Of a stretch of DNA of 64,000 nt, positions 20,801 to 58,959 are shown piece by piece. The notes beneath the pieces are model-generated. The model was not told the DNA's origin. It saw only the letters and a program-made list of their open reading frames with translations, and did no database searches. The DNA comes from Amoebophrya sp. A120 (Eukaryota; Protista; Dinoflagellata), in contig CAJINV010000007.1 in NCBI GenBank assembly GCA_905178155.1, positions 2,027,151 to 2,091,150 on the forward strand. The letters are read 5' to 3'. Within the stretch, counting starts at the first letter, position 1; each line of letters opens with the position of its first letter. The position numbers were made by a program, and so were the translations under genes.

Positions 20801-21257
20801 GGGAGAAGTGACAGTCCCCACCGACACCCACACCTTTGGTGGTCGTCGAGGCAGCACCCGTGGATCCTCCTGCTGCATCGCCTTCTCGGTCGAGTGCATC
20901 GGATGTGCATTGCAAAAATACTTAATATCGCGCAATCGCTTGGTAGTTTGTAGTAAAAACGTATGTACAAATTTGTCCTCCGCAAGGTGGAAAAAAGGAA
21001 TTTGTGATGCGGATTCAGGTAAGCCGCGACCGCGAGCAAATCTGTCACGCAAGATTCAGTTTGTAACGACTAATGAGTGCGATAGTACTTGTTTTGCAAT
21101 GCATACCGAGGTCGATTCGGACTTGGCTCGGCGAGCTCCGCCCCTGTCCGCTGTCGCCGACGCGGTCGGCAACGGAGCGGCTTGTCATGCTTCTTGAGCT
21201 GCTGGAGCTGGAGGTTAGTACGCGCACTGCGGAGGCGTACTCGGGACTGGTGGACAT
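17815..21257 (-). CDS. Dynamin-related GTPase (Mx/DRP4-like), 6 exons
   Basis: G1 GNQSAGKSS, G2 CTR, G3 DLPG, G4 TKCD. Middle domain NLSARVRGIF. GED AYAHIIQGRFVDSACMLCYKFLVRDL...DPDVVQRRKVVEESLFRLQTSIQKL is only assembled after removing introns 20904-21105, 19516-19656, 19069-19296 (GT-AG), 18181-18320 and 17927-18091. Confidence 0.92.
17927..18091. mobile_element. Introner (TATGCAA..AAATTTCC family)
   Basis: tatgcaatgcaaatttcc / ggaaatttcctgtgaata. Exact direct repeat ccaac. Restores the GED C-terminus. Confidence 0.85.
18181..18320. mobile_element. Introner (TATGAGAGYGCACA family)
   Basis: tatgagagcgcaca / tgtgcactctgata. Exact direct repeat gcatg. Removal gives ACMLCYKFLV. No GT-AG option on the coding strand. 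Confidence 0.9.
19516..19656. mobile_element. Introner (CATCCCCATCC family)
   Basis: Subterminal catccccatcca / tggatggggatg. Exact direct repeat ctcgc. Removal gives NLSARVRGIF. Confidence 0.85.
20904..21105. mobile_element. Introner (TATGCATTGCAAAA family)
   Basis: tgtgcattgcaaaaatac..tatcgc / gcgatagtacttgttttgcaatgcata. Joins dynamin exon 1 to exon 2 in frame. Confidence 0.8.
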
Positions 21258-35614: not shown

Positions 35615-38600
35615 CTACCCTTCCACGTCCATTGGCTGCACATCGCTACTCGCGAGGCGACCCTGCTGCTTTGCATCGCCCACTTCCGCTACTTGCTTCT
35701 GCAGCTGCTTCAATCGTTTTTTGTGCAGCTTCTCCTCCACCGTGCCGCACGCGTAGAACCGATAGACACTGACCGCGCTGGCGGTCTGGCCGAGTCGCCG
35801 CACCCGCCCAAGCGCCTGCTGCTCGATCGCCATCGACTCAGCGGCGGACTTTGCAAGGACCGGGTGCACGAACAAAATGTACCGGGCCTGTGGAGAACTT
35901 ACTTACATTCGAATTTGATTTTCGTAGGATACTTACAGAAAAAAACGCTCTTCGTTCTTCGGCGAACAGCAACAGCAACAGACCAGGAAACCGTACGAAA
36001 AACGACCAACGACATTCATCACAGACAAATGATGCTTTGAGAACGAAGCGACGCATAGAATAGTCTCATCTCTATACGAAACTAAATACGTCGCGTTCGG
36101 AAGAAAGAAAAGTCGAAGCAAGCTGTACCCTCGTGAGCGTAGTTCCGCTTGCTTTGTTCTCCAAGGACATCAACAAAATCTCCGAATTCTCCCAGAGAAA
36201 AATGCTAGTATATATCATACGCGCAATATTTGTATTTTTGCAAAAAGATCACATCAGTAGAAAAACGGAACCTAGAAAACATCAGCGATATCGGCGACCG
36301 TGAGTGCCGCATAGCTGGCCGCGTGGGTCCTCTGCAAGTAGACTTTTGCACCATTTGGATTTTTCATTTACAGTAAACATACATACTCTAGCTGTTTTTC
36401 TCGGAGATACGGACTCTCCCCGTACTCGTCCGCCTTGTCCTTCTGGAAGCAGCGGACCACTTTGTTCTGCGTGTTGGCATTGGCTTTGTTCAGCATGCGC
36501 GACTTAAACTGGTAGACTTTGAAGGCCGCGTCGATCTTCTTCATTAAGTCCGTCCACTGACAAAACACAATCGCTTTCGACCCGGGATCGTCCTTCTTGA
36601 TCTGCTTTATGCAAGTGCAAAAGAATCGCATCAGTATGGCAGGTTTTTTTCTCCAGAAGAAAATACAGATTCAAACGTCGAAAAATAAAACCCTATGTCT
36701 GTGGTTATGCGTGAAGATTGTCGCGATTGGTGGAAATTGTACGATACTTTTGCCGTGGATATGCTTCAGGACTTCGCAAATCCTTTGGATTTTCGAACCG
36801 AAATGGTCGTAGCTGTTCGGCGGTACGACCAAATTGAAAGAAGACGAGCTGGAGGAAGTAGCACCAACCTGTATATGAAGTGGTTGGCAACGCGAGTTAT
36901 CAAACTCAAACGGTTAAAGATGAAGCTCATCGAGATCGACGCACTTCTATATTTCTTATTATCTTCTTGAAAGTCATATTATAGACTCCTAGTCTTCTTT
37001 TCTTCTTCGAAAAAGCGAAGAGCATATGGTAAAGCCCACCTATTTCCGCAAAGTAGGAATTGAACTAAGTAGCTACCTTCGACGCCCCTCCTTGTTCCGG
37101 AGAGGGCACGAGGTAAAAGTGTGGCGGTTCCCAGGCGGGAATTTTCGCCCTGCTGACCGGGCACTTCTTTCCAGTGGCGCAGTCCTCGCAAAGCACGTGG
37201 CCGCCACGTGTGATTCCCAAGGCAGATAAGCCTTCGCTCTGGCGTTTCCCGCAGCACGCGCAGCCGGGCGCGTTGGCGTGGTAAGAAAAGAGGTATGACG
37301 CGGTGCGGAGGAAGTTCGCAGCCTTGATCTTATCGTGGTACCGCGCTAATGCGTTCGACACTTCCGGAAGTAAGATTTTGTTGAAGTAGTATCCGACCTT
37401 GGCCGCCCAGGCGGGTTTTGCGGTGACCGCGATTCCTCCGCTACTGAAAAACAAGCTCGGGCGCTGGTCCTCGTCGTCCTCGTCCTTTGCCTTCGCATTC
37501 GTTTTTCTCTTCTCTTGACTGTGCGCCCCCAGCAATGTTTGCTCTGCTCCACCACTTGAAGCGGCTGTGGCTACGAACTCTGGTTGGTTCTCTTGCGCCA
37601 ACAATGCCGGTGCTTTGTTCGCAAGGTCGCGGCTGCTCTTGTCCCCAAGATCAAAGAGAGGTGGTGAGCATGCAGCTGCGCCGCCCACGTTGGCCTTCTG
37701 AGGCGACGGTCCCCGCAGAATCAGGTTGGCAGACGATACTGCTACAGCTTTCGCTGCCGGCGCTTCTTGAGAGTCAAGCTCCACTCCTGCCTTCGCGTGT
37801 TCAACATCACAACTCGTCCGCGTTTGGTGTTCATTTAGTTCTAGTTTTTTGCCTTCGTTTGCATTCTTCATTTCGTCTTTTTCTTGCTTGGTCAGAAGCA
37901 GCTCGTCCACCTCCGCACGCTTTTTTCTTCGCTGCTCCGCCAGGAATTCCTGTTTTCTGTTGTGAAACGCCAGCTGCTCCGTTTTCAACGTCCGCTCGAT
38001 CGCGTCGACCGCGGTTTTCGTACTGTCCCTGAAAAACGTGTACCACTTTCCGACCTCCGTGTTCTGAAACCCTTCGTCTCCACGTTTCCGCCCGAAAGCC
38101 GTGTCGACGAGCTGCATGGGGTCCGTGTGCGCAGTTTTCTCCTGCAGGTGCAACAGCACGTTGAACTGGTTTTGGTAGACACAATATGCATTGCAAATAA
38201 CATGTAGTCCGAAAAGCCGGATCTTCTTTTGTAGTTGGAAAAGCAAAACCGCCAAACATCAAAACAACTGGGTTTCATTTTATGTTGCGCAAAGAGCGAT
38301 TGCGATGCTCCCGTTGTCATGCTTCTTCAATATCAAGAATTTTTTGCGAATTCTGTGACACCGTTCTGGGCCGAGTGCGTGTAGTGTAGTTGTAGACTGT
38401 AGTGAAAAACAAAAACGAAAAGCGATATTCATTGAACAGACCAGACATCATATTTGCTGCGCGATACTTGTGAAGACGCGGAACTTCCGCAGTTACTCGT
38501 GGCTGACATCGTGTTCACCATTTTGAAAGCTTCTTCGCAGAAAGTTTGGATCTGCTGCGTCATGTCAGCATAGGACGCGTCCAGGACTGCTGTTCCGAAG

Positions 38601-41600
38601 GGGGGATAAATCTGGTCGAACAGTTCGTTTGCGGGGATCTCTCGTTCTTCGATTTTGTTACCAGCGAGCTCAGCTTTTTGTTGTTCACCAGCAGGGGCGG
38701 CTGGGGGTGGATTCCTCGCGAAGGCTGCAGTACTTGCTGAAGATGTTGGTGCGGACCGAGAACTACTGCTAGAAGCCTTCGCCTTCTTGGCGGCCGGCTC
38801 GTCGTCGGTCTCTCCGACGCCCCCCGGAATTTCCACAGGAGGTGCGGCAGCAGCATTACTAGCAGTCGCCCGCTTCATGGGCTGCAGCTGGTGCTGCGCC
38901 TGTGCTTTAGCCTTCGCAGATGCGGATGCCGCGGCTTTCGCTTTCCCGTTCTGCTGTTTTGCCTTCGCAGAAGTTGTGGCGGACGCTGTTGAAGCTGGTT
39001 TCTTCATTGCGGTGGAGATACTATTGGACCCTGCTGCAGCCGCAGTCATCTTCGCTTTGGCCACAGCAGAAGCTTCGGCGCTTGCTTTCACTTTCGGAAT
39101 AAAGGATGGCAAAGTGCACACTGTCGTCTGTGTGCCAGCGGTGGCAGTTTCTCGGGGCTTGTAACAACTTGGAATGAGATCGACCTTCTTGACTGGATCG
39201 GAGATGTAGTTATCCGTCGTCGTGATTGTTTCTTCGACTATGACTTCTCTATCTCTTTCATCTGCCGCTTCATTAACAGCAGCGGGGAAAATCTCGTCCG
39301 CAATCATGTTGTGCGGTTGTGGTCGCTCCTCGCCAACACCGAGAGCATCATCATCTTCGGACACTCTGTCCTCCTGAGCACCATCTTCGAATGTTGAAGC
39401 GGATTTCGCCATGTTGTAACTTCGGGAACTACCATGCGGCAGGAATTCTTCGTTGTGTTCCATCATCTCAACATCTTCCACCCCATTGCCATCCAAGAGG
39501 AGGACACCAGCAGAGGCACCCGTGAGCTGCGATTTTAATTGCGCCGCACTGGCTCGACAAGCTTGCAGCTGCTCCTCGGTTAGAGGAAACAATGACATCA
39601 ACATCTCGCCTCGCCCTTCCACTTCATCTACTTTCGCCGGAGGATCGGCGCTGCAGGTAAATAAAGAAGACGCTGCAGTTGTTGACACCAGTCTCGTGGG
39701 CAACACACCAGTTCTTGCAGCTGCCATGGCGGAAGATGAAGATGATGAGGAAAGCGCAGCACACTTGGAAAAAGTGGTCTGCACCGCTTTGCTCGCACCG
39801 ATCGTGCCGATCCGTAACGCCCGTCGCTGCTGGCAGAAGATGAGCAAGCGCCGGCATACCTCCACACGCGCAAAGTGGTCCCGGACTTGTAGTGCCTCGG
39901 ATTTCAGTTCCGCCAGCGCTTTCTTCAGGCGGGTCTTCATCGCGTCCGCTGCGGTGCCTTCTGCTTCGTCGGCCGCGTGGTGGCTGCACAGCTTGATGAG
40001 CTGCGTGAAAGCGTCCCGCGCGAGTTTCTCCTCGTCAATGTCCTTGGCGGCGAAGTCAAACAAATCTGGGCCGGAACTGTGTTCGTCCTCGAGGTCCTGC
40101 TTCTCCTTTTCGTACAAGAGCCGCTCAGCGTGCGTCTGCGCGACCGCTATCTCACGCGAAACCTGTTTTTGAGGTTTATTGATTTCCACTGAAATTGCGT
40201 GGCGTTCTGTGTGTTGTTGCGCCAGGAGCATATCTTCAGGGTTATTGGTCAGTCAAATTTCTTTGTAGGTAGTAAGTAGCATGCAAGGGTAGATCTGCTG
40301 ACAGGAGCCACTTTCAGAGCAACTTCCAGTCAACGCGAAGCCAGGACCTCCAAACAAACGAGACTACTGCTGTTCGTCGAAAGTACCACTCTGATATTCT
40401 CCACGTCGTCGCACTTGGCGTTTTGGCGGAAAAGCGTGGACAGAAAATTTTTGCAGTTCTGGACCACAACGGACGACACGCAGGGCGCCCGCAGGATTTT
40501 ATTTGGGTTCCCCGGCTTGTGATCGTTGTCGATTTTCTCGGTTCCCTTGAAGCGCACGGGCGGCGGCTGCGGGCCCGTAGGGGCGAACCACTCCGCGTCT
40601 GCTCCAGTGGTGGCCAGGTCCATGCCGAACAGGCCGCCCATGGTCCGCACGCTTTCCGCCGACTGCACGCACGGCGTCCCCGTCAGCCCCCATCTGCAGC
40701 TGCTCCGCAGGAACATCAGCACGTTGGTCCGCCCGCTCAGCGCCTCGGCTTCCGGGTATGAAAGGCAAAGGCGCAGCAGTGCTGCTTTTTGGCCAAGGGA
40801 AGGGCAGTGAAGCAGTAGGGTTTATTTTGAAATCATACAAGCGGCCAGAAATCTCCTAGAAGCGGCGCCGCCCCCCGATCGTGGATGCATATTGCGCCGG
40901 CAACGGCGAGTCAGGCACTTAATAAATATTTCTGCGGAAACACAACCAGCGCTGGGCCTTGCTTTGCCTTTCATAGATGGAACTCGTCCAAAACCAATCT
41001 ACCCCAGTGGCATTGCTCTAACAGCGGGAATGGTAGATCGAGCGAGGTCTTTGACTTGCTGTTCATGGTAGTCTTGCTGCAGCGCTTGTCCCCGGCGTAC
41101 AGAGCTGGGCTGTTCTTAAGGTGTGTATCCAGATGAAAGCTGCAATGCAGAGCCATTATCCTGCTCGAGTCAAAGCTTCGGATTTGTACCATTTCGTGCG
41201 CAGTTGCAAGAAAAAGCATCAACAATCGCGATGTCATCTTGCTGCCCACCTCATTGCTCTATTCAGTACATATGGAAACTGTCGGAACAACAGGTCACAA
41301 ATGAAAATCACCCTGCTCCCGCCAGACTTGATGTTCATATTCCTAACCTAGTTACTAGCGCGAAACAACAAGGCCTCCGGACCGATACAGGCCGGCTCTG
41401 CAAGGAAAAATAGTCTGCCGCAGATAGATCCGCGTGTCGAAATACGGGGCCCGGGCAGCTTTGTAGTCCGCGTCGCTCCTGTCCCAGTCTTCGATGAGTT
41501 TCGCCGTCACTCGCTTCAACGTCTGCACCGGGTAGGGCTTGTTGGCCGACACCTTCTGCACCTCTTTCCCCACCTCCTTTTCGGGATCGGCGTCCAGGTA

Positions 41601-44600
41601 ATCCTGCACGCGGAGCAGGTAGTCCTTCGAGTACAGGACCCGATAGGTACAGGCCACCAAGTCAAACGCGGCCAACTCCCGCGCGGTCTTCTGGGCCAGC
41701 TTGGTTATGGTCTTAATCGTCAGCACTTTCCACCCGTAATCCTCCCCGAATTTTTTCACCTCCGCTTCCCACTGGTCTACGATTTATGCATTGCTGCAGA
41801 AGAATCGCACTCGTAGTACTCGTAGCCATAGCAGCCTTGCATGACAGTGCATCTACTTCTACCTGATCATCACTCTGCGAGACAAGTTGTGCTTCGTTCC
41901 CTGGCCCTGCATGTAGAAAAAAGTCCTCCCATATTACAGATTCTTACCTCCACGAGCGCGATGCAACTTTTGCAGTGCGTACGAGTTGGCTAGGAACTAG
42001 AATAAGCGTGGTGCTGCTCAGGTCGTAAAAGGAACCGGCGTCCTGCTCGGGGAGCTTCGGCTTGGCTTTCGCGTTTTTCTTCACCGCAAAGAAGTCGTGC
42101 TGGGCCGCCATGAGCGCGAGCGTGGTGGCAGTCTTCCCGAAACCGACCTTGTCCGCCAAGACACCGCCCCGGAGGTTGTACTTGTATTCCACTTCGAATT
42201 CCACACCGATAGCATTCTCCAGAAGCTTGGCGTCGCTGTTGATGCCCAGCATCGCCTCACCCAAGTCCATCATCTTTCTTTGCAGGACGCTCACCGACTT
42301 GGGATTTCGCTCCTGGTCCACCATCCACGTCAGTGCGCGGCGTTGCGAGCTATCAAACTTGAAGCAGGAGGGGCCTACTCTGTGCTGTCGAGGCCAGTCC
42401 TTTTAATGCAAGTACTAGAATGGGCAATATTAGATTGCTGTGAAGATGATGATAGATCGTCCGCGACATCATCAACTACATGCAAATGCATCCTACAATA
42501 AAAGCATATTCAGCATTGTCCACCGAACGTTCTTCTTCTTGCTGCAGACGAGAATTCTATGTTCTTGCGCTATTAACTTTTTCTTCTGCGTGCTACTTCT
42601 ACTATTCAGAATATTAAACTCGATCACCTCTCGACGCAAATGCAAATCAACTCCTGCGTACGTGGGATAACAATCCCGCAGCTGTTTCTCCGGTGCTTTT
42701 GTCCACTTTTTCGGCTGCGCGTGGAGCGCGTCTTCGTCGTTGCTTTTCAAATCGAAACTCGTGTCGAATTTGCTTTCCTGTACGGATGAGGTGGAAGAGG
42801 CGTCTTCGAGAATGTCCTCATTATCGTCGTCCACGTTCGCGTCGTCGCTATTCTGTATTTGCTTTTGGTCGTCTTGAAGCAGTGCCCCCTGAAGATCATG
42901 TCCAAAAGAACCAGTAGCTGCAGCATCTTCCGTTGCTCGCTCCACTGGGTGAAAATACCGATCTGCCATCAACTTCTCCGACACGCGCGGAATTCCCTTG
43001 ATCGTGTTTTGCCGGCTTGAATGGTGGTCCGGGAAAATGCGGACGCGTAGCCGCAGTTCGTCCGCAACGGAAAAACAGTCGCCAATCAGCCGGTTGAACT
43101 GGTCACAGATTCCAAGCAGGCATGATATCAAATGCAGAAGCACCGACATAAAACTCGTAGCTCATTGCCATACTAAAAACTGATGGAGACAACAGTTTTT
43201 GTTCTTATCGATCCTGTAATGCCTCAGGTTGTTCTTGTGCGACTAGATCTGGAAATCAAATACATCTTTCTTCTTGACTAAAACCATAGTAATTTCGTAG
43301 TCATGTCGTTGAACCGGTTTAATCATACTAGGTTTTCGATGCTTTTGCAGTGAATACGTAGTTCCTCCGTGCGCTCCGTTTTGTCCAGGGTAACGACCAC
43401 GGATGCAGGGCACAAATTCAGTGTGGTCGAGAAGTTCTTCATCAACCGATTGTCGAAGGTGTGAAAGTTTTGCGCCACGGCCCAGCGCTCGTCCTCCAAG
43501 TCTTGCAAGTCGGAATAGGGATCCGGAGCGGCAAAGCGGTACTGTGGCAGCGTCGGTTCGAGATCTGCGAGCTTGGGGCTCTGCGTCCCACTTCCACATT
43601 CCAAAGTCGTGAACTCAACACCATTTTTTTCGGACCGAAAATCTGCACCAGCCGCGCTAGAAGATGAAGTAGAAGATAAAGATTTAGAAGCTATGGTGCT
43701 GCCGGTCGAGAGGAAGTTGGAAAACGCCAGAATGCCGCACGTCAAAGCTGGAGAAGCGTTCGGAGCGAGGTCTTGCTGTATCTTTCCGCAGTCATCTTTC
43801 AGTTCTGCCATGAAAGCTTTCAGATCTGCTTTTTCGGTTTTCAGCGCCGGTCCGTAGGTGCGCTGGTCATCCACCTGAAACGTCGGCCGCATATGTGGGT
43901 AAGTCACTCTCGCGACACAGAGATGGCTCGCGTCGATCTCAACTTCCTGCCGCAAATCGTAGCTGCGTTGGTCGTTGATCGGAATGATTTTCTTTAATAT
44001 CAGGTCCACGTCCTTGTTTATCTTTCCAGCATCGCCTTTTTTTGCCCCGGAAGAACTTTTGCTACTTTCTTCTTTATCCTTCTTGCTCCCCGTTGCTCCT
44101 GTGGACTTCGAAGATGAAGAGGCGTTTTTTATTTCGTGCTTGATCTGATTGCTGGTGCGTCCTGGCGGTAGTGGCACAAACCGGCGAAAGTCGGACACGC
44201 CGCAGCCAGCCTGGAGCTTCAGCACCGGACAGGGAAACATACAGTGGTTCGGAATGAAGCGCACCACGCTAGTGTCAGGCGAATTCCGGTTCTCACGCTC
44301 CTGCTGCCCGCCTCCTTCTATGCGGCTGAAACAGGTAAAGTAGGCTGACGTCTGACTGTCTGCTGGCATCGGGCGCGCGGGCCACCAGTCGCCATAGCCG
44401 TGGATCAGCAGCTTCGTCGTGCAAGCGATCTGGCGCAGGAAACCGACCGTGCCTTCCCGCTCCTGGCGCGGTTCGCCGAAGGCGGCGCACTTGGCCGCGC
44501 CGGCCCGCGCAAGCTCGTCAGCGGTGGCGTGCCGCAGCTCCCTCGCTTCGAAGGCCCCGACTTCTGGCTTTGTCCTGTGTAAAAACGTCCCCACCTCCCG

Positions 44601-45167
44601 CCCAAACTCAAGATGAGATTCGTTTGACAGGTTTTCGCAGGCTGTTGCGCACGACAAGTTCAAGATCGCTGCGAAGCCGTATCTAGATACTGGAGCCCCA
44701 ACATTACCAATTATCGGTCATCCCCTTTAATTATATTCTGAAGATTCTACTAGCATGACAAATTGCAAAAAAAACCCATGAGATAATGCATTTCAACATG
44801 GGGCTGCGCAGCATCAGAAAAATTCTAGGGAAGCCGCGGACTTGCATGCTAAATCTGGGGCGGCGGGGGCGTTTATTTTACTCAGGATAGGCTTTATCGC
44901 GTCGCTAGCCGGGAACATTCGCTCAATTTTGAAGTAAGTGGCACAACCGGGTCGGGTGGGGATTTTCACTTCAGACACCACACACAACGCCTCAACATGC
45001 GGTCCTGCTCCCGTGGGTGGGATCGGTGGATGGTACCACGAAGATGATCCTCCACATCCTCCGTGCTGCACCAAATTCGAGGCTCGCACCACTTTGTCGC
45101 CGACCTTGAAAGCAGGTGGGGCAGCGGCTTGCTGGGGCTGCTTAAACCCACCGTAATTGCTCAACAT
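35615..45167 (-). CDS. SNF2-family ATPase with embedded degenerate RING (RAD5/16-like, DNMT5-type module), many exons
   Basis: Motif I GGVLADKVGFGKT, Ia LILVPSQLVDQW, II RLVLDEFH, III RWGLTGTP, IV KAIVFCQW, V LLMSLENKASGTTLT, VI EQQALGRVRRLGQ..VYRFYACGTVEE. RING-like CACC..GHVLCEDC..CPVS. The start and some 5' junctions are uncertain. Confidence 0.88.
36188..36409. mobile_element. Introner
   Basis: tctcccagagaaaaatgctag / ctagctgtttttctcggagata. Flanks cgaat/cggac. Join gives ESPEILLMSL. Confidence 0.75.
36608..36761. mobile_element. Introner (AAAGTATCG family)
   Basis: tatgcaagtgcaaaagaatcg / cgatacttttgccgtggata. Exact direct repeat tgctt. Join gives VLKQIKKDDPGSKAIVF. Confidence 0.88.
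40757..40975. mobile_element. Introner immediately after helicase motif II
   Basis: Perfect 14-bp IR tatgaaaggcaaag / ctttgcctttcata. Flanks ccggg/gatgg. Joins the DEFH exon to the RWGLTGTP exon in frame. Confidence 0.85.
41785..41981. mobile_element. Introner inside helicase motif Ia
   Basis: tatgcattgctgcagaag / cttttgcagtgcgta. Flanks cgatt/cgagt. Join gives VPSQLVDQWEAEV. Confidence 0.85.
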
Positions 45168-46205: not shown

Positions 46206-46808
46206 TTACTGCATCACAAATTCCGTTAACACTAACACTTTTCCCTGTGATATTTTCCTCGAATTGTCCATTATCCAGTCCAGTGAGGACTCGAAATCCC
46301 GCCTCCGCAAAATGCGATGCACAAAGAAATGCTGCAGGCCGTAGTGTTCCTGGACGTGGTGTCGTCCTCTTGAACAAGTCGCAGTTGATTTTTCAAGGTG
46401 CCGCGCGAACGTAGTCAGTATGAGAGTGTCGCATTTGGAGGAATCGACGAAGTTCAAGTTGATGAAAGTAGAGCTTGTATTCACTATGCACAACTTACTT
46501 GTGGCGCAGTAGAGCCTGCCTCTATTGCAGAGGACGCAGGCGAGGCAGAGTGAGTGTAGTGCTGCGAACGGGCGTGACAGGAGAGAGCTCTCTTGCCCTA
46601 AACCAACAGGAGCAGCATGACAGATTTGCTTCAGATTTTGCCGGAAAGTTTTGTCATGCGCCGCTTATAAATTGTCGGTCCAACAAGTTTCGAGTTTCTG
46701 CATCTTCGCAAATTATTGCCACTTTGTGGTCGATTTCAAACCTAACACTCCCATAATCAGGTCAAATTTGATGTCCGTGTCCAGCACGTGAACTTCGACG
46801 CGGTTCAT
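46206..46808 (-). CDS. Exons of an unresolved hypothetical gene (probably part of a larger 45.8-48.9 kb model)
   Basis: MNRVEVHVLDTDIKFDL joins in frame to TTFARHLEK...DWIMDNSRK after removing 46419-46755. The true ends are unknown. Confidence 0.35.
46419..46755. mobile_element. Introner (TATGGGAGYGTCAG family)
   Basis: tatgagagtgtc..aatcgac / gtcgatttcaaacctaacactcccata. Flanks gtcag/atcag. Interior collinear with 23006-23313 (tattgcagaggac, ttgccctaaacc, ttgtcatgcgccg). Confidence 0.85.
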
Positions 46809-48909: not shown

Positions 48910-51900
48910 CTATTCTCCTTCTTCCACCTCAACCACCTTCGTCCCGAGCGTGATCGGCGGTTGCCCCTGCGTCAACAGCTTGTGAAATTCTTCCCTCGTC
49001 ACCGGCGGACCGTGATTCCACTCGGTGGTGAGAAGACTTTCCGCTTCCTGCAGCGATATCGGCTCGCCTATTCTGTGCAAAAACGACGTCACCTCGCCAT
49101 AGTCAACTTAAGGTGGGGACTTTGACTTTGCAACACAAATATTCATGCAGAAGTTATTTTGGGAGTTGTCACGAAGGATATAGCCCTTTCACCGTGGTGT
49201 GGCGTAGTGCAGGTCCGCACGGACACGGACCGCCGCATTGCACACCCTTTAATAATATCCTGCTTACAGCATAGTTGCATAAGTAAGCCGAAACACGACT
49301 TCCTTAAAAATAGAACAAACCACCCCTTCTAGTGACGATGCACAATGCAAACCGCGTTCTGCTACATACAAATCTGCCTGACATCAGCTCTGGGGCGGAC
49401 ACGTGGTTTCTACTGAGGATATCACCGAAAGCGGTGCGCACACTCTCAATGTCGAGTTTATCCGCAGTATCCGCAGTATAATTTCCCGTACAATTTTGCA
49501 AAGGCGGTTGCTGCATGACAAAACTTTCCTTCAATCCTATTCAACAGGGAAACTGGAATCAATGCTCTAAGTTGGAAAAATCTGCGGTGCATGGCACGGG
49601 AAATTTATATTGCATACGCAGCGGGATCCTTCACCAAACTGAGTTTTGTCGTTCATCAAGTGATCGATCTCGAAGTTTTATACTGTAATCGTAAAATCGT
49701 AAATGCCAATGGTGGAATAGTTTACATAAATCTACAATACGATGAAAGCCATACTGCGGGCATCTTCAAGACTAATCGATAATACTATTTCCGTGTTTTC
49801 GCATGCTAGTACAAATAATTTAGTCTCAAAGTACAACTGTGCGTGACAGCTACAAAAACTGCAAGATGCGATACAATATAGTTGGGGCTGAGTCCGTTAC
49901 GGTTCGTTACGGCTCGTTTCACCGTAACGAACGAACGAACGAGTTCGTTTGTGGCATCAGAACGAACAAACGAACGAACGAACGAACGCACTGGCTTTGC
50001 CATCCAAACGAACGAACGAACGAACGAACGAATGTGTGTTCGTTCGTTCGTTCGTTCGTTTCACCGTAACGAACGAACGAACGAAGTGGCTTCGCAGGTT
50101 CGCTAACGACCAAACGAACGAACGTACGCAATTTCGTGAGCTCGTTATGGTTCGTTTCCCCGTAACGAACGAACGAACGAGCCCGGTTCTGGCAGCCAAA
50201 CGAACAAACGAACGAACGAACGAACGAAGGGATTTGCGTTCATTCGTTCGTTCGTTATGGTTCGTTTCCCCGTAACGAACGAACGAACGAAGTGCTTCGC
50301 GGGGTCCGTTAACGACCAAACGAACGAACGCGCGGGCTTTCGGTCGCCCGTTCCGGCTCGTGGCGGCTCCCGTTAAAATAAAGTTTATAAATGAAGTATA
50401 CCATCGCGGGGAATATTCCGCAGGACGGTATTCTGTATTTATGTGTCGCCACCCCAGCGGCTCGACATTCATCCACTAACAATGACCGCCAGCTGCGCAA
50501 CGTGCGCCAAGAAAAGGCAGCGACCGCGACGCACCCAGGGGCCGCCCGCGTGGAGGACACGCATGCAGGATTTTTGGCCCCCACACTACCGAGCCGGACC
50601 GCGGGTTTTCGGTCGCCCCCCCGTTCCGGCTCGTGGCGGCTCCCGTTAAAGTAAAGCTTATACATAAATGAAGGATACCATCGCGGGGAATACTCCGCAG
50701 GGCGGTATTCTGTATTTATGTGTCGCCACCCCAGAGGCTCGACATCCACTAACCATGACCGTCAGCTGCGCAACGTGCGCCAAAAAAAGGCAGCGAACGT
50801 GACGCACCCAGGGGCCGCCCGCGTGAAGGACACGCATGCACGATTTTTGGCCCCCGCACTACCAAGCCGGGCCGGCTCGCTCGGATGCCTCGGGCTTCGC
50901 CTAGAAGAACACGAGCAAGCGCGCGACCTTGCCGTAATCGGACGGACGTCCAGGGCTCCGCTCGGACGCTCCGCTTGGACCGCCGAGACGAGCATTCCGC
51001 CGCATTTCTCTTTGACGGGCAACCGCCTACCAGAAGATCTCGCCGGACTTGTTCGCTAAAGAGAAAAGCACAAAGCCAGCGCCGGACGTTCTTCGCCAAC
51101 TCGCGGAAAGACGACGAGGGAGCTCTCACCTTTTGCAGTGTTCACGCACGGACGTCTTTTTCCGAAAATCGGATTCGTTCGTTACGGCGTTACGGCTCGT
51201 GACGAGCTCGTTCGTTACGGTGAAACGAACCATATACGAACCGTAACGAACGAACGGGAATTCGTTCGTTACGGTGAAACGAACCGTAACGAACCGTAAC
51301 GAACGAACGAAAATTCGTTCGTTACGGTCAAACGAGCCGTAATGAACCGTAACGGACTCAGCCCCAACTATACTCTACGATACGTTTCTGACGTAATCAC
51401 GACCTGTTGCTGAAAAAAAAATCGATTGATTTTTGATCTTTCGCACATGAAAAACGACGAGACTATCACTTTTCAAATATTTGATAAAACAAAATCTACA
51501 TTCATATGAAAAATCGCAAATCGCTCGTGTTTCATCCAGATGCTTATGCTTTAGTTTTACCTTTTACGAGAAGAAGAAAAATTGCAAAATACGCACTCCA
51601 CATTGGCCGCACGTCGAAATTTTCCGTCCATCGCAGAATTACATTCGCAAACATCTTGTCCGTCACTTTTCATTATACACGAGACATGGGACACGGACAC
51701 ACGGCGATGTCATGCCCCATGTCTCATGTCTTGGGACATGGGACATGGAGATGCCATGTCCCGTGTCTCATGTCTCATGTCCTGGGACACGAGACACGAG
51801 ACATGGGACACGAACACGGCGATGTCATGTCTCATGTCTCATGTCCTGAGACATGTCATGTCCCGTGTCTCATGTCCTGGGACACGAGACATGGGACATG

Positions 51901-54688
51901 GGACACGGCGATGTCATGTCTCATGTCTCATGTCCTACAGCCTCAGCCAGAAAGTGTCGCGGATGCCCATGTCTCATGTCATGACTTTCGGGTCCACCAA
52001 GACATGAGACATGGGACATGAGCAGGGCATTTTCCTCTGACCCAGGGCCGGCACGTGTCGGGACATGAAGGCATGGACATCAAATCGGCCGTGTCATGTC
52101 CATGCTCGTGTCCTCATGTCATGACACGGCTCCAAGACATGAGACATGAGACACCAGGCTCACAGCCGCACATGTCTTGCAAAATGCGATCCTTTTCTGA
52201 CGTAATCACGACCTGTCGCTAAAAAATATTAGGTTGATTTTTGATCCTTCGCACATGAAAAACGACGAGACTATCACTTTTCAAATATTTGATAAAATAA
52301 CATCTACATTCATATGAAAAATCATAAATCGCTCGTGTTTCATCCAGATGCTTTAGCTTTAGCTTTACCTTTTTTTACGAGAAGAAGAAAAATTCCAAAA
52401 TACGCACTCCACAGTGGCCGCACGTCCAAACTTTATCGAAAGAAAAAGTGTTTACGTTTACGGTTTATCGTTTTTTGGATTAAAAATTTTCTCGGTGTGC
52501 ATTCGGGGCATTTTTTACAACTTGAAGCTGACCCCTCGACTCTGTTAGCTATTGCGGGACTGCGGAGTAGCTCACTGGGTTGGGTCTAACTAGTGCGCAC
52601 GGTATGGCGAAACGGAATGCTCCTTTTTGGCCTCGAAATGGTGCCAAAGTGATGTTTTTTTCCTCGGATTTCTCCACTACCCAGCAACTAGAGATGACGT
52701 TTACGGTTTTTGGGGGTAGTCTACCCTCAAAAACCGTAAACGTCATCTCTAGACAGCATGCTATGATCCATTTTCCCTCACCCAAACAGGTCCCCCTCCG
52801 GGGTCGATGGTTGCGACACCTTCGGGGGCGGATCTCATCACCAATGCCTGGGGCCCTGGGCCACCGGCCTACGGCCATCATTGCCCGGGAGCCCGGGCAG
52901 GGCTTGGGCAGCTCTTCCAAAGTTTGAAGGGGCGGGCGCAATGTTATGGCGGCGCTGCATAGTTTTCGCATCCCGCGCGTTAGCTGCTTCCCAACAGTTT
53001 TACTACTTCAGAGCCCCGAAAGGGCAAAGGGGATGCCTGCGCGGCTGCAAGAAAAAAAAGATCAAAATTTGTGGCGCTGAGTGGCCGCAAAAAATTTTTT
53101 TTCCAAAAAACTGAAAACCGTAAACGTAAACACTTTTTCTTGTGATAAATTTTCCGTCCACTGCAGAATTGCATTCGCAAACATCTTGTCCGTCACTTTC
53201 ATATCCCGTAACATGATAATCCAGATGCTTTAGCTTTACCTTTACGAGAAAAAGAAAAAATGCAGAATACGCACTCCACAGTGGCCGCACGTCCAAATTT
53301 TGGAAGGGGAGTGGGTCTATTGCTACCTGAGGGGGAAAAAGGTGAAATAATGTGGCGCGATTTTCCCGCCCGCCGTTTATGACGATGAGACACATGCGCG
53401 GCAAGAACTGCGGCGCCTCAAAGTCGGCGCCGGCAATGATCGGGCCAGACGCTCAGAATAAGTAGAAGGGCCGCCCACAGGAGTGTCAAAAAATCAGCGG
53501 CAGGAGGAGGCTGCACGTCCCCGCATGTGAAAGAGTGCGCCTCAGAGAGAGTGCCCATTTCCGTGTATGGGTGTCCGTGGAGAAATCGACGACAGAAAAA
53601 AGGCGCACGACTTAAAAAAATCTGAAAAGGCGGGAGCTGGCAAGACGGCGCAGCTGTTCACTCACTGAACACGCCCTCCAGAAAGCGCGCTCATTTTTTC
53701 ACATGTGGAGAAATAGTCGCCAGAAAGAGAGCGCGCCCATTCGCATCCGGCAAAATAGCTGCCAATAGCGACAGGCCCCACGTCTCGTTTTTCGTGTGAA
53801 AGAATGGCCTCCAGGAACAAGCCCCACTTTTTCACATGTGAAAGAATGGCCGCCAGAAACAAAATCCATTCTTTCACATGTGAAAGAAAGCCCTTGAAGC
53901 GATACCGCTTGGCTGGACCCCCGGGACAGATGCAAGAGCTCCGCACTGGATAGCGCCTGGCCTCCGCCTATTGCTATCCTTCTGCCGCGGTTTCTTTCCT
54001 GCGGGCAGGGCAGCTTTGCGATTGGGCTTGAAGACGTCACCCCGTGAGCGCTGGAGCATTTCAATCTGCTTCGCAGCGTTACCGGGCCCGACTGCCATTT
54101 ACCCGCAAAGCCCTTCCCTATTTCAAATCCTCCACATTATTTCACCTTTTTCCCCGGTGGTTTTGCGATAGACCACTCCGATCCCAACAAATTGTCCGTC
54201 CATCGCAGAATTGCATTCGCCAACATCTTGTCCGTCACTTTCATTTCCCGTAACAGTCTGCCCTTTTCGTGTGGGCCCAACCGTAGTGCGGCGCAATGTT
54301 CTTCAATCGCTTGACGCGTTAGTTCGCGCACGGCTAGGGGGGAAATCTTGGGATCCAACGTCTGCAAAAATTTGTAAACCTGCTGCACGCCGATCTTCCC
54401 GTAAGAACTACTGCCCGAGTCGATGATGTCTATTGCTTTTGTGTTGATATTTTTTACCCCGCTTGTATTCGTCCATTTTGCCGAAGATTGTTTCTCGCCT
54501 TTTCCTTTACCTTTGGAAGAGGAACTCGACGAGCTCGGCTGTTGAGCAAGTTGCTCGCGCAATTTTTGAAAAACCAGAGATAGCTCGCTGGCTGATGGTC
54601 CTTTTCGTTGTCCTTTCGAAGATGACGTGGTCGTCGGCCGTGGCAACGCGCCTGTAGAAGTTGCACCAGAAGACGACGCCGCAGACAT
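48910..54688 (-). CDS. Divergent calmodulin/centrin-like EF-hand protein, putatively split by a 4.6-kb intron
   Basis: N-part ELSLVFQKL..GKIGVQQVYKFLQTLDPKISPLAVRELTRQAIE (54688-54255). C-part EVTSFLHRIGEPISLQEAESLLTTEWNHGPPVTREEFHKLL (to 48910). An in-frame GT-AG join 54254->49639 is possible. The linkage is inferred. Confidence 0.35.
49468..49616. mobile_element. Introner (TATGCAA..AAATTTCC family)
   Basis: tatccgcagtataatttcccgt / acgggaaatttatattgcata. Exact direct repeat cgcag. Shares the 21-mer ttccttcaatcctattcaaca with 17927-18091 in opposite orientation. Confidence 0.85.
49877..51372. mobile_element. 1.5-kb non-autonomous TIR element with (AACG)n/(CGTT)n subterminal arrays
   Basis: Perfect 29-bp TIR tatagttggggctgagtccgttacggttc / gaaccgtaacggactcagccccaactata. 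No clear TSD. No coding capacity. Confidence 0.88.
50332..50872. repeat. Tandem duplication of an approximately 270-bp unit
   Basis: 50332-50600 and 50601-50872 are near-identical (gcggg..ttcggtcgccc..ccggctcgtggcggctcccgttaaa...). Confidence 0.9.
51674..52184. repeat. CATG-based self-complementary satellite/foldback (GAGACATG, GGGACATG and CATGTCTC, CATGTCC blocks)
   Basis: Alternating blocks of 7-8-bp units in both orientations. The boundaries are approximate. Confidence 0.8.
52434..53147. mobile_element. 714-bp TIR element (MITE)
   Basis: tatcgaaagaaaaagtgtttacgtttacggttt / aaaccgtaaacgtaaacactttttcttgtgata. Flanks aactt/aattt. Absent from the paralogous site at 51612-51629. Confidence 0.9.
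52688..52752. repeat. 65-bp near-perfect palindrome
   Basis: ctagagatgacgtttacggtttttgggggtag-t-ctaccctcaaaaaccgtaaacgtcatctctag: 32-bp arms, one mismatch, 1-nt centre. Confidence 0.95.
53300..54187. mobile_element. 888-bp TIR element
   Basis: ttggaaggggagtgggtctattgc..ggggaaaaaggtgaaataatgtgg / ccacattatttcacctttttcccc..gcgatagaccactccgatcccaa. Flanking duplication caaatt. Internal ttcacatgtgaaag repeats. Confidence 0.85.
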
Positions 54689-55640: not shown

Positions 55641-58600
55641 TCAATTTGGCACTGATAGTACTGCAGTTTGCTCGTCAGAGGATGAAGCGGTAGGCGCCGG
55701 GGCAGCTGCTGCTGGTCTCGTCTCTTGTTCCGGACGAAGAGGTGCTGGTGTAGCTGCATCACCAGCCGCGGCGGTGCAACTCGTTGTAGAAGTGTGGGAA
55801 TTATGTTGTCCATTCGCAGTAGTTTATGGAGAGAAAGATGAAGTTTGTCACCGTCACAACATACAAAATTCTTTTTGCCGGTTCGTTCTGCATCACAAAC
55901 TTTTTTGCCATCGCAGCTTTTTCTTGTATCTATTGCAGAAGCGCAAACGCAGAAGGAGTCGTGTTGCACACAGCAGCATGCCTGCCATGCATTTTAGAAA
56001 GTTCATTTTCATGCATAACAGATGAGGATGACGCATTTGTTGTACTTAAATAATTTCGCTCTCCTCCTTGTCCTACCTACCGTTTCCCGATGCGTCAGCA
56101 TGAACCACCCATACACACAGAGGTGGCCGGACCCCAGGGGCGCCGCTTGGAGGCCGCACACTTGCCCCCATGTTTCGTCCGTGGGTGGCACTCAGAGGGG
56201 AGTACCACAGCACCAAATCCCAGCAAAGCCAAAGCAACGCATGACACCCGCAAGGGATGCCGTGCAACCTAATATGCAACCAGTGAGCATGATCAGCGTC
56301 ACATCCAACTATGCATGATCAGCATCTGCAGCGGTGCATCCTAATTTGTTATGCAAAACAGCATGAAAACACAGTGTCGCGCACAGGGCGGGAGGGCGGA
56401 AGAAAAGAACAAACTCAGCACCATCAGGAGCTTAAGGGTCTCTGCACTCCTGGCCCAAGCATCAGCAGCGGGCAGCAAACAACAGCATCATTGGTCAGCT
56501 ACAACTTGCATCGGGAACCAAAGGATACGACGAAATTATTTATCATCACATTCTGTGCTGTGTAAAATGATGCATGCATGATCATGGTACGAAATCCGCA
56601 AAAAAACATGATAACTCACCGTGACGGACTTTTTTTTGTTTGATACAGTTTGTGCTGCTGACTCCTGTACGACTTTAGCAGTAGCTCCGGTGGCCCTTAT
56701 CCCTTGCAAAAACGTCCTCCCGACCCCAGAGTTGTCTCCAGTCGCATCAAACGGATCTGCAAGCCTAGAATGTTTCTCATGCGCAGCCCAGCACGTAGCA
56801 ACGTTTTCAAATCAATGCTCTGAGGGAGTTTGTCATCTTTGTCATGCTACAATCAGGACAAGAGGGTCGATTTGGGTCGTGGTGGTGACGTTTTGCACAT
56901 GATAGTTCCGGGTGGTTGGTTAGTTCCCATTTCCAAGTATCCTGTGCGAAAGTATCGCACTCGTAAGTACTAATACATACAACCAATTGCTGCAGATATG
57001 CTCCTTCCTAAGCCACGACACTGTTGCAATGTCCATTTGCCGAACTTATAGATGCAATTTACTACACAAGTACGATACTTTTGCATTGCATACCAAATCA
57101 GAATCGACAATCATGGTCACTGGGCCGTCATTTTCTAACTGGACTCGCATCATGGCCCCAAGCTATGCATCGCAAATATGTTTGGGTCATCTAGAAGATT
57201 GCAAGACTTGTACTATGTACCAACGCCTCCTGTTGACATGCCGATGTCTCCAAGCTCTGTGCCGCCTGGCGCCGAGCAAATCCAGGTGTTGTCTGTCGTG
57301 CGAAAATGCCGTTTGCCATGCAGATGATGAAATATCGCAATTAATGGATACTAAGCGGACCAAATGAATTTCTCACGGGTCACGCTTGACTGCGTATTGC
57401 ATTGTGATAATAGGCTATAAACTTTTCCAAATTCGAATTCGATCACAGTGACATTTAATCTTCCACCACATTGACATCCAGACATGTTTGCATTGGAATA
57501 CGAACTCGCCCGTCGCAAGTTTCCCCCCGTTCTTGTGCCCCTTTCTCACTTCCTCCACAAAATGGTCATACATCTCTCTCGCCGGCTTCGGGCTCATACT
57601 ACTGTGAAAATCTGGCTTGGGCTTCTTGAACTTTGCGTGCAAAGTGAGCGTATGCACTGCAGATGAAATAGCACCGTCGTCCGTACTGAAAATTGCATCT
57701 ATATTTGCTTTCGTTATGCTTATGATTTACGTTTTGCTCGTTGTCCTTTTCCTATTTAACGAATCATAAATCATTTTTTTCCCAGAGGGAGTATTGCTTG
57801 CATTTTGCAATGCTGATTCAAATCAAATAAAGGAGCCTCATCTATTTCATTCATGCATAAATTGCCATCACTGGTACTACGACGGCAACGACGATACTTT
57901 TATTTTTGCGCAGGATAGAACTGGGACACGATCAGGATGTCGTACTTCGATTCGGTACACGACTGCGCCCACTGCGGCTCGAGCGTTTCCCAGTCGGTAT
58001 TCTCCGGCCCGGCGTTCTATGGAAGGAGCGTCAGATTTGAAATCGACGACGAGAAGCTTGAAATTGTTAAATTCGATTTCATATTTCTTGTATTTTCCGT
58101 CACGCTCAATGAAACGCAAGGCGCAGTATTATAGTGCCTGTCTTGCAGAGCACTCAAGTCAAAAGCCGCTGGTAAGTCTGTTTGGGGTTGGTCTTGGTCC
58201 TAGAGCTGCTACAGTACTAGCACGACAGATGCCGTCTTCCTTGCCCAAACAGCACGAAAGCTTGGATCTCCGTGTTTCCTAGATTCGTCACGCGGCTTCT
58301 AGAAGAAATTGATGGAGGTCCTCACACGACCACAACTGGCATCGATTTTGTGCATCGCGAATTGTTTTGTTTAACTTATTTGTCACCAATTTCAAGTCTG
58401 ACACTCCCATACGTTTTTGGGGAAAAGCTTCATGCGGAGCAGCCGGCGGACGCAAAAATCCAAGTGCTCCTTCGTTATCCTGTGCAAAAGTATCGCACTC
58501 GTATAAATGCAAGTCTTGCATCACAAATCTTGTTCCCAAGGCCAATCAGCATTACAAATTTTATTTCTCATGCTGAGGAAATTTGTAATGCATTTATACG

Positions 58601-58959
58601 AGTACGATACTTTTGCATTTCATATTCGTGTCGGTCTGGCAAATGCCGACGAGGACCAACAGGCCATTTCGGATTTCGCCGGCGACGCCGTATCAATCAA
58701 AAAAGCGCTGTAACGTGGACGGTTTTCTTTTTACAGGTTGCAGTCATGCATGACAAATCGAAATCTTGGACGGTATAATGCATGCTGGTATCTATACAAT
58801 ACAAATTCATGAGCAACTTGCTACTTAATTCTGATCTAAAATTCATGCATTCTTGCGTTAGAAATTCCGTTGGTTAAGAACGTGAAACACTTTTCCCCGT
58901 GATACACCAGTGCTGGTTGTCACCGCGGCAGACCGAACGCGCTGGATTACGAGGCGCAT
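55641..58959 (-). CDS. DTD1: D-aminoacyl-tRNA deacylase, 9 exons, about 244 aa
   Basis: Exons 58959-58905, 58685-58625, 58470-58412, 58012-57918, 57645-57501, 57158-57093, 56932-56905, 56692-56646 and 55819-55641 (735 nt) give [65 protein letters not shown]. The last three exons (low-complexity tail) are less certain. Confidence 0.93.
55825..56645. mobile_element. Enlarged introner (DTD intron 8) with a nested IR element at about 56010-56355
   Basis: tat..aagt..ccgtcac / gtgacggactt..ata. Flanks tagtt/cagtt. Internal IR tgcataacagatgaggatg / catcctaatttgttatgca. Confidence 0.6.
56698..56904. mobile_element. Introner (DTD intron 7)
   Basis: tatcccttgcaaaaacgtc..cgaccc / gggtcg..gacgttttgcacatgata. 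Flanks gccct/gttcc. Confidence 0.8.
56938..57092. mobile_element. Introner (DTD intron 6, AAAGTATCG family)
   Basis: tatcctgtgcgaaagtatcg / cgatacttttgcattgcata. Flanks ccaag/ccaaa. Confidence 0.88.
57164..57500. mobile_element. Introner (DTD intron 5)
   Basis: tatgcatcgcaaatatgtttgg / ccagacatgtttgcattggaata. Flanks caagc/cgaac. Splits GEF|GA. Confidence 0.88.
57651..57917. mobile_element. Introner (DTD intron 4)
   Basis: tatgcactgcagatgaaatagcaccgtcgt / acgacgatacttttatttttgcgcaggata. Flanks gagcg/gaact. Splits SQF|TL. Confidence 0.88.
58018..58411. mobile_element. Introner (DTD intron 3, TATGGGAGYGTCAG family)
   Basis: tatggaaggagcgtcagatttgaaat / atttcaagtctgacactcccata. Flanks cgttc/cgttt. 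Confidence 0.88.
58476..58624. mobile_element. Introner (DTD intron 2, AAAGTATCG family)
   Basis: tatcctgtgcaaaagtatcgcactcgtataaatgca / tgcatttatacgagtacgatacttttgcatttcata. Exact direct repeat ttcgt. Confidence 0.92.
58691..58904. mobile_element. Introner-like intron (DTD intron 1, decayed IR)
   Basis: tatca...tgata ends. Flanks cgccg/cacca. Join gives TTSTGVAGEI. Confidence 0.75.

Follow-up and report, generated by a model that had tools for sequence, protein, structure and literature searches.

TAT…ATA introner elements in a putative DTD1 gene of Amoebophrya sp. A120 are compatible with removal in a single asymmetric register

Farhat 2021 (PMC7789003) reports that 65% of Amoebophrya introns lack GT-AG ends and presents their removal as an open question (statements on this and other cited papers refer to their available parts). 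In strain A120 that study describes introner elements with inverted repeats consisting of TAT, 7 nt and an A-run, flanked by direct repeats of 3–5 nt, a 5-bp repeat being the example in the legend of Fig. S19. The corresponding non-GT-AG, RNA-supported introns are mixed with GT-AG introns, and their splice positions are described as variable, with no clear signature. The nine leading non-canonical motifs of A120 (Table S4) all have T at +2; in A25 the elements start with TTA and their introns with TT. Of 89 spliceosomal proteins 83 were found, and in the available part of the paper neither U1 snRNA nor a transposase is reported as detected in A120. Here we analyze a 64,000-nt stretch of the A120 assembly GCA_905178155.1 (contig CAJINV010000007.1, positions 2,027,151–2,091,150; further referred to as the window, whose own numbering is used below), where eight such elements interrupt a minus-strand gene (58959–55641) coding for a putative D-aminoacyl-tRNA deacylase, DTD1.

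Gozashti 2025 (PMC12130899) lists 58 introner families in A120 and attributes the A120 introners to several transposon classes. The 19 of these 58 rows available are mostly DNA elements with terminal inverted repeats (TIRs), with GT and AT leading among the 5' ends. Several families co-opt both splice sites from the flanks, three modes of co-option being distinguished in automated calls, and the target duplication varies from 2 to 5 nt by family, with 5 bp established for one family by manual inspection. Outside dinoflagellates, the nonconventional introns of Euglena follow the code N3-CDG…CH'G-N5-6 with a purine starting the next exon, as shown by knock-in; circles were also reported (Nomura 2025, PMC12501133). 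The introns of Fritillaria borealis that derive from miniature inverted-repeat transposable elements (MITEs) lack GT-AG and are removed by an altered U2 spliceosome (Henriet 2019, via PMC11282704).

In the window, the introns are compatible with a single cutting register: each consists of the last base of the upstream repeat, the element from TAT to ATA, and the first four bases of the downstream repeat (−1/+4, further referred to as the −1 register). All 24 supported junctions, which are spread over three genes, fit it. The DTD1 gene cut in this register is as follows.

55641–58959, minus strand: putative DTD1 gene (ATG at 58959, stop at 55641), 9 exons, 735-nt open reading frame (ORF), 244 aa
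58959–58906, 58686–58626, 58471–58413, 58013–57919, 57646–57502, minus strand: exons 1–5
57159–57094, 56933–56906, 56693–56647, 55820–55641, minus strand: exons 6–9
58687–58905, minus strand: intron 1, 219 nt; element 58904–58691; repeats TGGTG/CGGCG; ends GT..GC
58472–58625, minus strand: intron 2, 154 nt; element 58624–58476; exact repeat ACGAA; ends AT..GA; very high-copy family
58014–58412, minus strand: intron 3, 399 nt; element 58411–58018; repeats AAACG/GAACG; ends GT..AC
57647–57918, minus strand: intron 4, 272 nt; element 57917–57651; repeats AGTTC/CGCTC; ends CT..CT; joint contiguous in RNA-like contigs
57160–57501, minus strand: intron 5, 342 nt; element 57500–57164; repeats GTTCG/GCTTG; ends GT..TT; upstream limit of the cut at −1
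56934–57093, minus strand: intron 6, 160 nt; element 57092–56938; repeats TTTGG/CTTGG; ends GT..TG; ends in common with intron 2
56694–56905, minus strand: intron 7, 212 nt; element 56904–56698; repeats GGAAC/AGGGC; ends CT..GG
55821–56646, minus strand: intron 8, 826 nt; element 56645–55825; repeats AACTG/AACTA; ends GT..CT

Excision of the eight elements with 5 nt each leaves 735 nt encoding 244 aa with the SQFTL and NDGPVT motifs, identical to P0001, an annotated 244-aa protein of Amoebophrya sp. A120 (exon 5 aligns to it at 100% identity). All three exon pieces tested matched PF02580, in profile order, one of them exceeding the curated cut-off, and P0001 matched human DTD1 (PDB 2okv) with E 1.9e-27. 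The PF02580 domain together with the SQFT and Gly-Pro motifs assigns the product to DTD1. The search for sequencing runs yielded 11, none with a holder recorded as RNA; “RNA-like” is a program's guess, and the RNA-like contigs represent a single sample and are strandless. In the RNA-like runs X3 and X7 the DTD1 exons are joined within single contigs and the elements are skipped. Record 15 of X7 joins exon 4 directly to exon 5 and has the last exon begin at 55820, and the 140 nt between exon 5 and the last exon equal 66 + 28 + 46, consistent with the depth bins. The earlier note on this DNA had proposed the same 735-nt frame in an intact, expressed gene, and both the annotated protein and these contigs agree with it. 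An alternative placement of intron 8, giving a 744-nt ORF, was ruled out by the same two sources, which favor 735 nt. The C-terminal tail of about 85 aa (55641–56933) is of low complexity and holds introns 7 and 8; RNA-like contigs cover it. Intron 8 also contains nested inverted repeats (56012–56030 with 56337–56355).

The register was determined from positions where the two repeat copies differ, since there the transcript tells which bases are retained. When one offset was applied to all eight DTD1 junctions and nine offsets (−5 to +3) were tried, only −1 yielded P0001 without a difference; offset 0 fails at junction 8, and offset −2, at junction 7. At intron 8 the transcript retains the last base of the downstream repeat, which rules out the TAT edge as the cutting site of this intron. 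The remaining supported junctions come from two other minus-strand genes.

35618–45167, minus strand: SNF2-family gene, annotated protein of 2196 aa; 12 introns, of which 3 are GT-AG and 9 consist of an element + 5 nt and allow −1
40753–40976, minus strand: SNF2 intron exactly at −1/+4; repeats CCATC/CCCGG; ends CT..CG; unambiguous joint
42347–42670, minus strand: SNF2 intron exactly at −1/+4; repeats ATTGT/GCTCG; ends TT..TC; placed by the annotated protein P0006
46149–49621, minus strand: third gene region with 7 element introns, TAT at 46252, 46755, 47098, 47472, 47947, 49421 and 49616

Thus, the set comprises 8 introns from DTD1, 9 from SNF2 and 7 from the third region; six of the 24 rest mainly on the protein and total length, and one, on loose ends. 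Between 35500 and 55400, among the 15 joints listed out of 29, ten equal an element plus 5 nt (all allowing −1), four are GT-AG and one is unresolved. The joint 40752–40977 is free of ambiguity, and P0006 pins the second junction (42670). A placement of two SNF2 introns by length only was rejected, as the annotated protein fits another solution. Over all 24 junctions none contradicts −1, two are pinned exactly, four exclude offset 0 (the TAT edge) and nine exclude −2; were cuts uniform from −5 to 0, all 24 would fit −1 with probability 5e-7. We consider it probable that one −1/+4 register serves nearly all TAT elements. The earlier proposal of one non-GT-AG rule, the loss of the element plus 5 nt at every junction, fits all 24 and is refined to a fixed asymmetric 1 + element + 4. 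Its description of the DTD introns as starting with TAT and ending with ATA is correct for the eight elements; the introns themselves start one base earlier and end four bases past ATA.

The inserts share with the A120 introners of Farhat 2021 (PMC7789003) the organism label on the matching proteins and the main structural features. They are transcript-supported non-GT-AG introns amid GT-AG introns, with a TAT inverted repeat and an A-run, a repeat within the 3–5-nt range and copies elsewhere, in agreement with the earlier identification of them as Amoebophrya introner elements. The difference is that splice sites and repeat length vary there, whereas the present data show a duplication of 5 bp and a register that suits 24 junctions; the 19 available A120 rows of Gozashti 2025 (PMC12130899) show mixed calls and no common register. 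The introns are genuine, interrupt an annotated gene and belong to a class described before: the elements and their TAT motif, like the gene model, have been published or annotated, and the addition is a simple splice register. We found no statement of a fixed register in the literature, although further figures or rows of Farhat 2021 and Gozashti 2025 or subscription papers (Roy 2023, Henriet 2019) may hold one; PMC13149111 and PMC13326754 make no mention of Amoebophrya. Euglenid introns are likewise non-GT-AG, of likely MITE origin, with paired ends and fixed asymmetric spacers from stem to cut (PMC12501133). They differ in having CAG/CTG and spacers of 3 and 5–6 nt, versus TAT/ATA and spacers of 1 and 4 in A120, read here from sequence alone. 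The A120 ends, N-TAT…ATA-N4, do not fit N3-CDG…CH'G-N5-6 and resemble it in geometry only, nor is the purine rule for the next exon seen (80 of 135 elements). Fritillaria borealis introns have defined ends, AG-AC and AG-AT (PMC11282704), whereas the first base and the last four bases of A120 introns vary freely.

The eight DTD1 elements are 149–821 nt long, and all have TAT at the start and ATA at the end (minus strand). Their 5-nt flanks agree at 3, 5, 4, 3, 3, 4, 2 and 4 of 5 positions for elements 1–8, respectively, that is, at 28 of 40 versus about 10 expected, with a single exact pair. The 5-bp direct repeat, exact or drifted, that was reported earlier is upheld. A 28-nt end motif retrieved 90 stretches of a metagenome assembly, of which 89 loci (501 kb) were analyzed; it had no match in viral contigs. 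The family of intron 2 has 225 near-full matches across the 89 loci, and introns 4 and 8 have no match there of at least 40 nt. Of the 156 copies that have both ends, 106 are flanked by an exact 5-nt repeat; mean identity is 0.91, versus 0.23–0.31 at lags 2–4 and 6–10. The target duplication is 5 bp, and the transposon origin claimed earlier stands. A candidate constraint on the fifth repeat base (4 mismatches in 50, 4 in 38) was rejected after 7 in 48 under another selection (p = 0.23).

Using a codon model, 135 of 167 elements were assigned an inferred orientation (32 were dropped). Both orientations occur in genes, and element + 5 nt falls in the three phases in 40, 36 and 59 of the 135. 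The A-run is visible as A at positions 11–14 in 33–37 of 46 element ends (selected for TAT). The eight DTD1 inserts resemble MITEs: they are non-coding, their ends are of the TAT…ATA type, and their duplications measure 5 bp. None of 59 ORFs of the window or 121 further ORFs, which cover a small part of the genome, matched a transposase domain; a TIR family with Copia/Gypsy-like ORFs (Gozashti 2025, PMC12130899) is a candidate mobilizer. The single mobilizing machinery of the earlier note is a conjecture, beside which stand the several transposon classes of Gozashti 2025. Locus L004, considered as an autonomous element, was rejected as two separate introns flanking a host exon. Locus L017 contains a 2459-bp TAT…ATA stretch (476–2934) with an exact 5-bp repeat and family-type ends, possibly an element with captured DNA; its 415-aa ORF (P0005) has no Pfam or Atlas match. 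A young 1352-bp TAT…ATA element with an exact 5-bp repeat, long near-perfect inverted ends and an internal duplication lies at 1155–2506 of the window, and its two longest ORFs have no Pfam match.

We then considered what signal is read. Over the 24 introns the terminal triplets changed at 5 of 144 bases and the repeats at 38 of 120 (Fisher p 4e-10). Non-complementarity of the two ends rises from 1–3 of 24 at positions 1–3 to 7–17 of 24 at positions 4–15. Here the DTD1 elements had been chosen by their triplets, and the 16 others, by joints or annotation; in five of these 16 a triplet has drifted (ACA twice, AGA, ATG, TAC). For 20 of 24 introns shuffled sequences pair less well than the actual ends (z below −2); the median z is −3.9. 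In-register triplet pairing in the fold of the whole intron is below 0.15 in 11 of 24. The earlier note had terminal inverted repeats on all eight DTD elements, which is true in general, those of introns 4, 5 and 8 being weak (in-register pairing predicted at 0.05 at most). DTD1 intron 4 and the introns at 41426, 42669 and 47098 have little predicted end-pairing (duplex z above −2), yet they are removed in a compatible register and retain both triplets. The triplets at the two ends outlast the repeats and the stems, so that the signal does not lie in end-pairing by itself. The earlier interpretation thus loses end-pairing as the sole signal, given that old, weakly paired introns are still removed, and keeps the transposon origin, the single non-GT-AG rule, the intact expressed gene and the introner identity.

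The explanation to which we give about even credence is RNA splicing in one fixed register by a predicted adapted spliceosome lacking U1 snRNA. First, a transposase acting in trans would make a 5-nt staggered cut, the element being inserted in either orientation. Second, the transcript loses the element and 1 + 4 = 5 nt, as observed at 24 junctions and exactly at two; what is left amounts to exactly one copy of the repeat, so that a new insertion would be silent wherever in an exon it falls. Third, the paired ends would join the two sites and the terminal triplets would serve as a ruler, so that the base opening the intron and the four closing it are free. The spliceosome without U1 snRNA would retain recognition of +2 and +3, and the 3' site would be set by how far it lies from the paired end. 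The branch point could, speculatively, be one of the A residues of the terminal ATA (−7 or −5). A relaxed spliceosome is favored because the −1 register places U at +2 and A at +3, matching the donors of ordinary introns in the same genes (GTA in 5 of 5). The T at +2 in all nine A120 motifs of the available Table S4 (PMC7789003) is what the register predicts. In window and loci pooled, A at +3 shows no changes versus six at the mirror position, a post hoc comparison.

Several observations weigh against this explanation. The introns do not have a U2-type GT (or GC) donor with an AG acceptor, and the spliceosome's second step normally uses the bases at the intron ends, the first G and the terminal AG. 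In 135 oriented elements +1 is A in 49, G in 32, T in 27 and C in 27, and AG ends occur in 9; hence neither an excess of G at +1 nor one of AG at the end was found. Among the 24 supported introns, +1 is G in 10 and none ends in AG; the preference for G suggested by DTD1 (5 of 8) was rejected, being gone in the 135 elements. The 5' triplet is not significantly more conserved than the 3' triplet (4 versus 7 changes at positions 1–2 of 236 elements, p = 0.55), and TA at +2/+3 may merely reflect the transposon end. One of three canonical control introns also has paired ends (z −3.0). A cut at the TAT edge is permitted at 20 of 24 junctions, and an even mix of −1 and 0 explains the four informative cases with probability 1/16, making a mixture of the two cuts possible. 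No lariat, circle or branch point was seen in the contigs, and the raw-read RNA run X9 has zero reads on the DTD1 locus; the contigs share the single-sample, guessed and strandless nature given above, and the same data may underlie the annotated proteins.

The strongest competing explanation, less probable though well worth consideration, keeps the fixed register and dispenses with the spliceosome. An endonuclease would measure the stem base and TAT/ATA and cut with 1-nt and 4-nt overhangs, a ligase would join the exons, and the intron would be released in circular form or as a linear hairpin, a mode of removal proposed for the nonconventional introns of euglenids. The free terminal bases without GT/AG bias agree with it, as do signals whose symmetry suffices for function in both orientations, a fixed stagger resembling that of the Euglena code (PMC12501133) and the U1 snRNA that was not detected in A120 (PMC7789003). 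Against it stand the U at +2 and A at +3 shared with the canonical donors, which by the motifs available in Farhat 2021 (PMC7789003) also occur in A25 despite a different end sequence, and several introns with weak stems are still removed. In its boldest form, which we regard as rather unlikely, A120 would use, beside the spliceosome, another splicing code that serves tens of thousands of introns, a dedicated enzyme measuring one base before TAT and four after ATA on the paired stem. The 1 + 4 stagger would then equal the 5-bp duplication of the transposase, and insertions would be erased without a scar whatever their orientation or exon position, by a transposition and splicing system whose two halves are co-adapted and which is convergent with Euglena.

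It is improbable that the elements are removed from RNA without one register, the cuts varying by element or molecule around the repeat (for example, 0 or −1). Farhat 2021 (PMC7789003) does describe the position of splice sites with respect to the hairpin as variable, the rule would then reflect a small number of informative cases (−1 and 0 are distinguished at only four junctions), contigs hide minor forms, and the joint 52426–54188, which is unplaceable, the short next exon being present in two identical copies, is off the TAT rule. However, the complete fit of the 24 junctions, with two pinned exactly, opposes uniform scatter, and the published variability would be the expected output of an aligner across a 5-bp repeat.

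Both RNA-level splicing and excision of DNA had been left open in the earlier note. In the DNA-like run X1, genomic contigs over the DTD1 locus include the elements. One 2001-nt contig (56501–58501) spans introns 3–7 and a part of intron 8 unbroken with zero differences, and the depth of about 27–36 is equal for unique intron bins and exon bins. X1 contigs of other copies stop at 58476 (94), 58624 (165) and 57092 (32), the exact TAT/ATA termini. An element-free DNA form was not seen in this one run from one stage, contigs losing rare forms. Low-depth RNA-like contigs lie within intron 8 (56046–56676), and one of them (56496–56676) runs unspliced across the exon 8 border, which may represent pre-mRNA or DNA carry-over. 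We conclude that the elements are very probably removed at the RNA level, in keeping with the preferred splicing in a fixed register.

Programmed DNA excision in the transcribing stage, as for ciliate internal eliminated sequences, is very improbable: TA-like ends with inverted and direct repeats do resemble transposon excision substrates, the DNA and RNA-like runs are different samples whose stages may differ, and rare excised forms may exist (15 of 95 joints were shown for the DTD1-locus runs), but the DNA contigs hold the elements at exon depth, the contig 56496–56676 is unspliced (if not DNA carry-over), and the same element end is 5' in one intron and 3' in another with the upstream four bases kept in both (weakly, from two shared matches).

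A fixed register gives exact predictions in place of the published variable borders. It fixes where each intron starts and stops to the base, which can be used for lariat or circle PCR and for testing the mode of removal, predicts single-base changes that alter the mRNA, and offers a way to re-place the borders of about 30,000 repeated A120 introns. The rule likely makes new insertions harmless: since the message, once 1 + 4 bases are lost, is exactly what it was before the insertion, elements can spread as densely as eight in a 735-nt gene.

The same rule rebuilds other genes of the window, as had been claimed for dynamin and SNF2.

17815–20861, minus strand: dynamin gene, the part aligned to the A25 orthologue; 3 element introns with exact 5-bp repeats and 1 GT-AG intron

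Removal of the three elements leaves 785 codons open with 542 identities to the A25 orthologue, and SNF2 is supported by P0006. The earlier count of more than 25 cases is matched by the 24 introns backed by RNA-like contigs or annotated proteins plus these three. A probable further element intron with the 3' triplet ACA lies near the dynamin 5' end (20898–21105). No Tim17-family match was found among the 59 long ORFs of the window; the Tim17-like gene listed earlier was not itself checked. Over the whole window, TAT…ATA pairs with at least 4 of 5 repeat bases and at least 12 of 20 complementary end bases number 12, versus a mean of 0.8 and a maximum of 3 in 20 block shuffles. Rfam had zero matches in the window. 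All genes examined share the minus-strand orientation, in line with descriptions of unidirectional gene clusters in the genus.

Several other features were observed between 49872 and 54255. A 1.5-kb element (49872–51377) in a canonical intron has 64-nt inverted ends (94%), CGTT-rich microsatellite arrays and a 273-nt internal repeat; a matching 5-bp repeat was not seen. A CATG-rich array of short repeats (GACATGA-like units) in both orientations occupies 51670–52155. The region 51413–54255 contains a triplicated exon-intron segment (approximately 51560–51680, 52370–52430, 53150–53300 and 54190–54255) with inserts differing per copy, and lies partly within a 3632-nt GT-AG skip. The element at 53302–54187 (minus strand) has TTGG…CCAA inverted ends and a 6-bp repeat and is not of the TAT type. 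RNA-like contigs skip it, and it occupies nearly the same site as the TAT element 52434–53147 in a duplicated copy of the segment.

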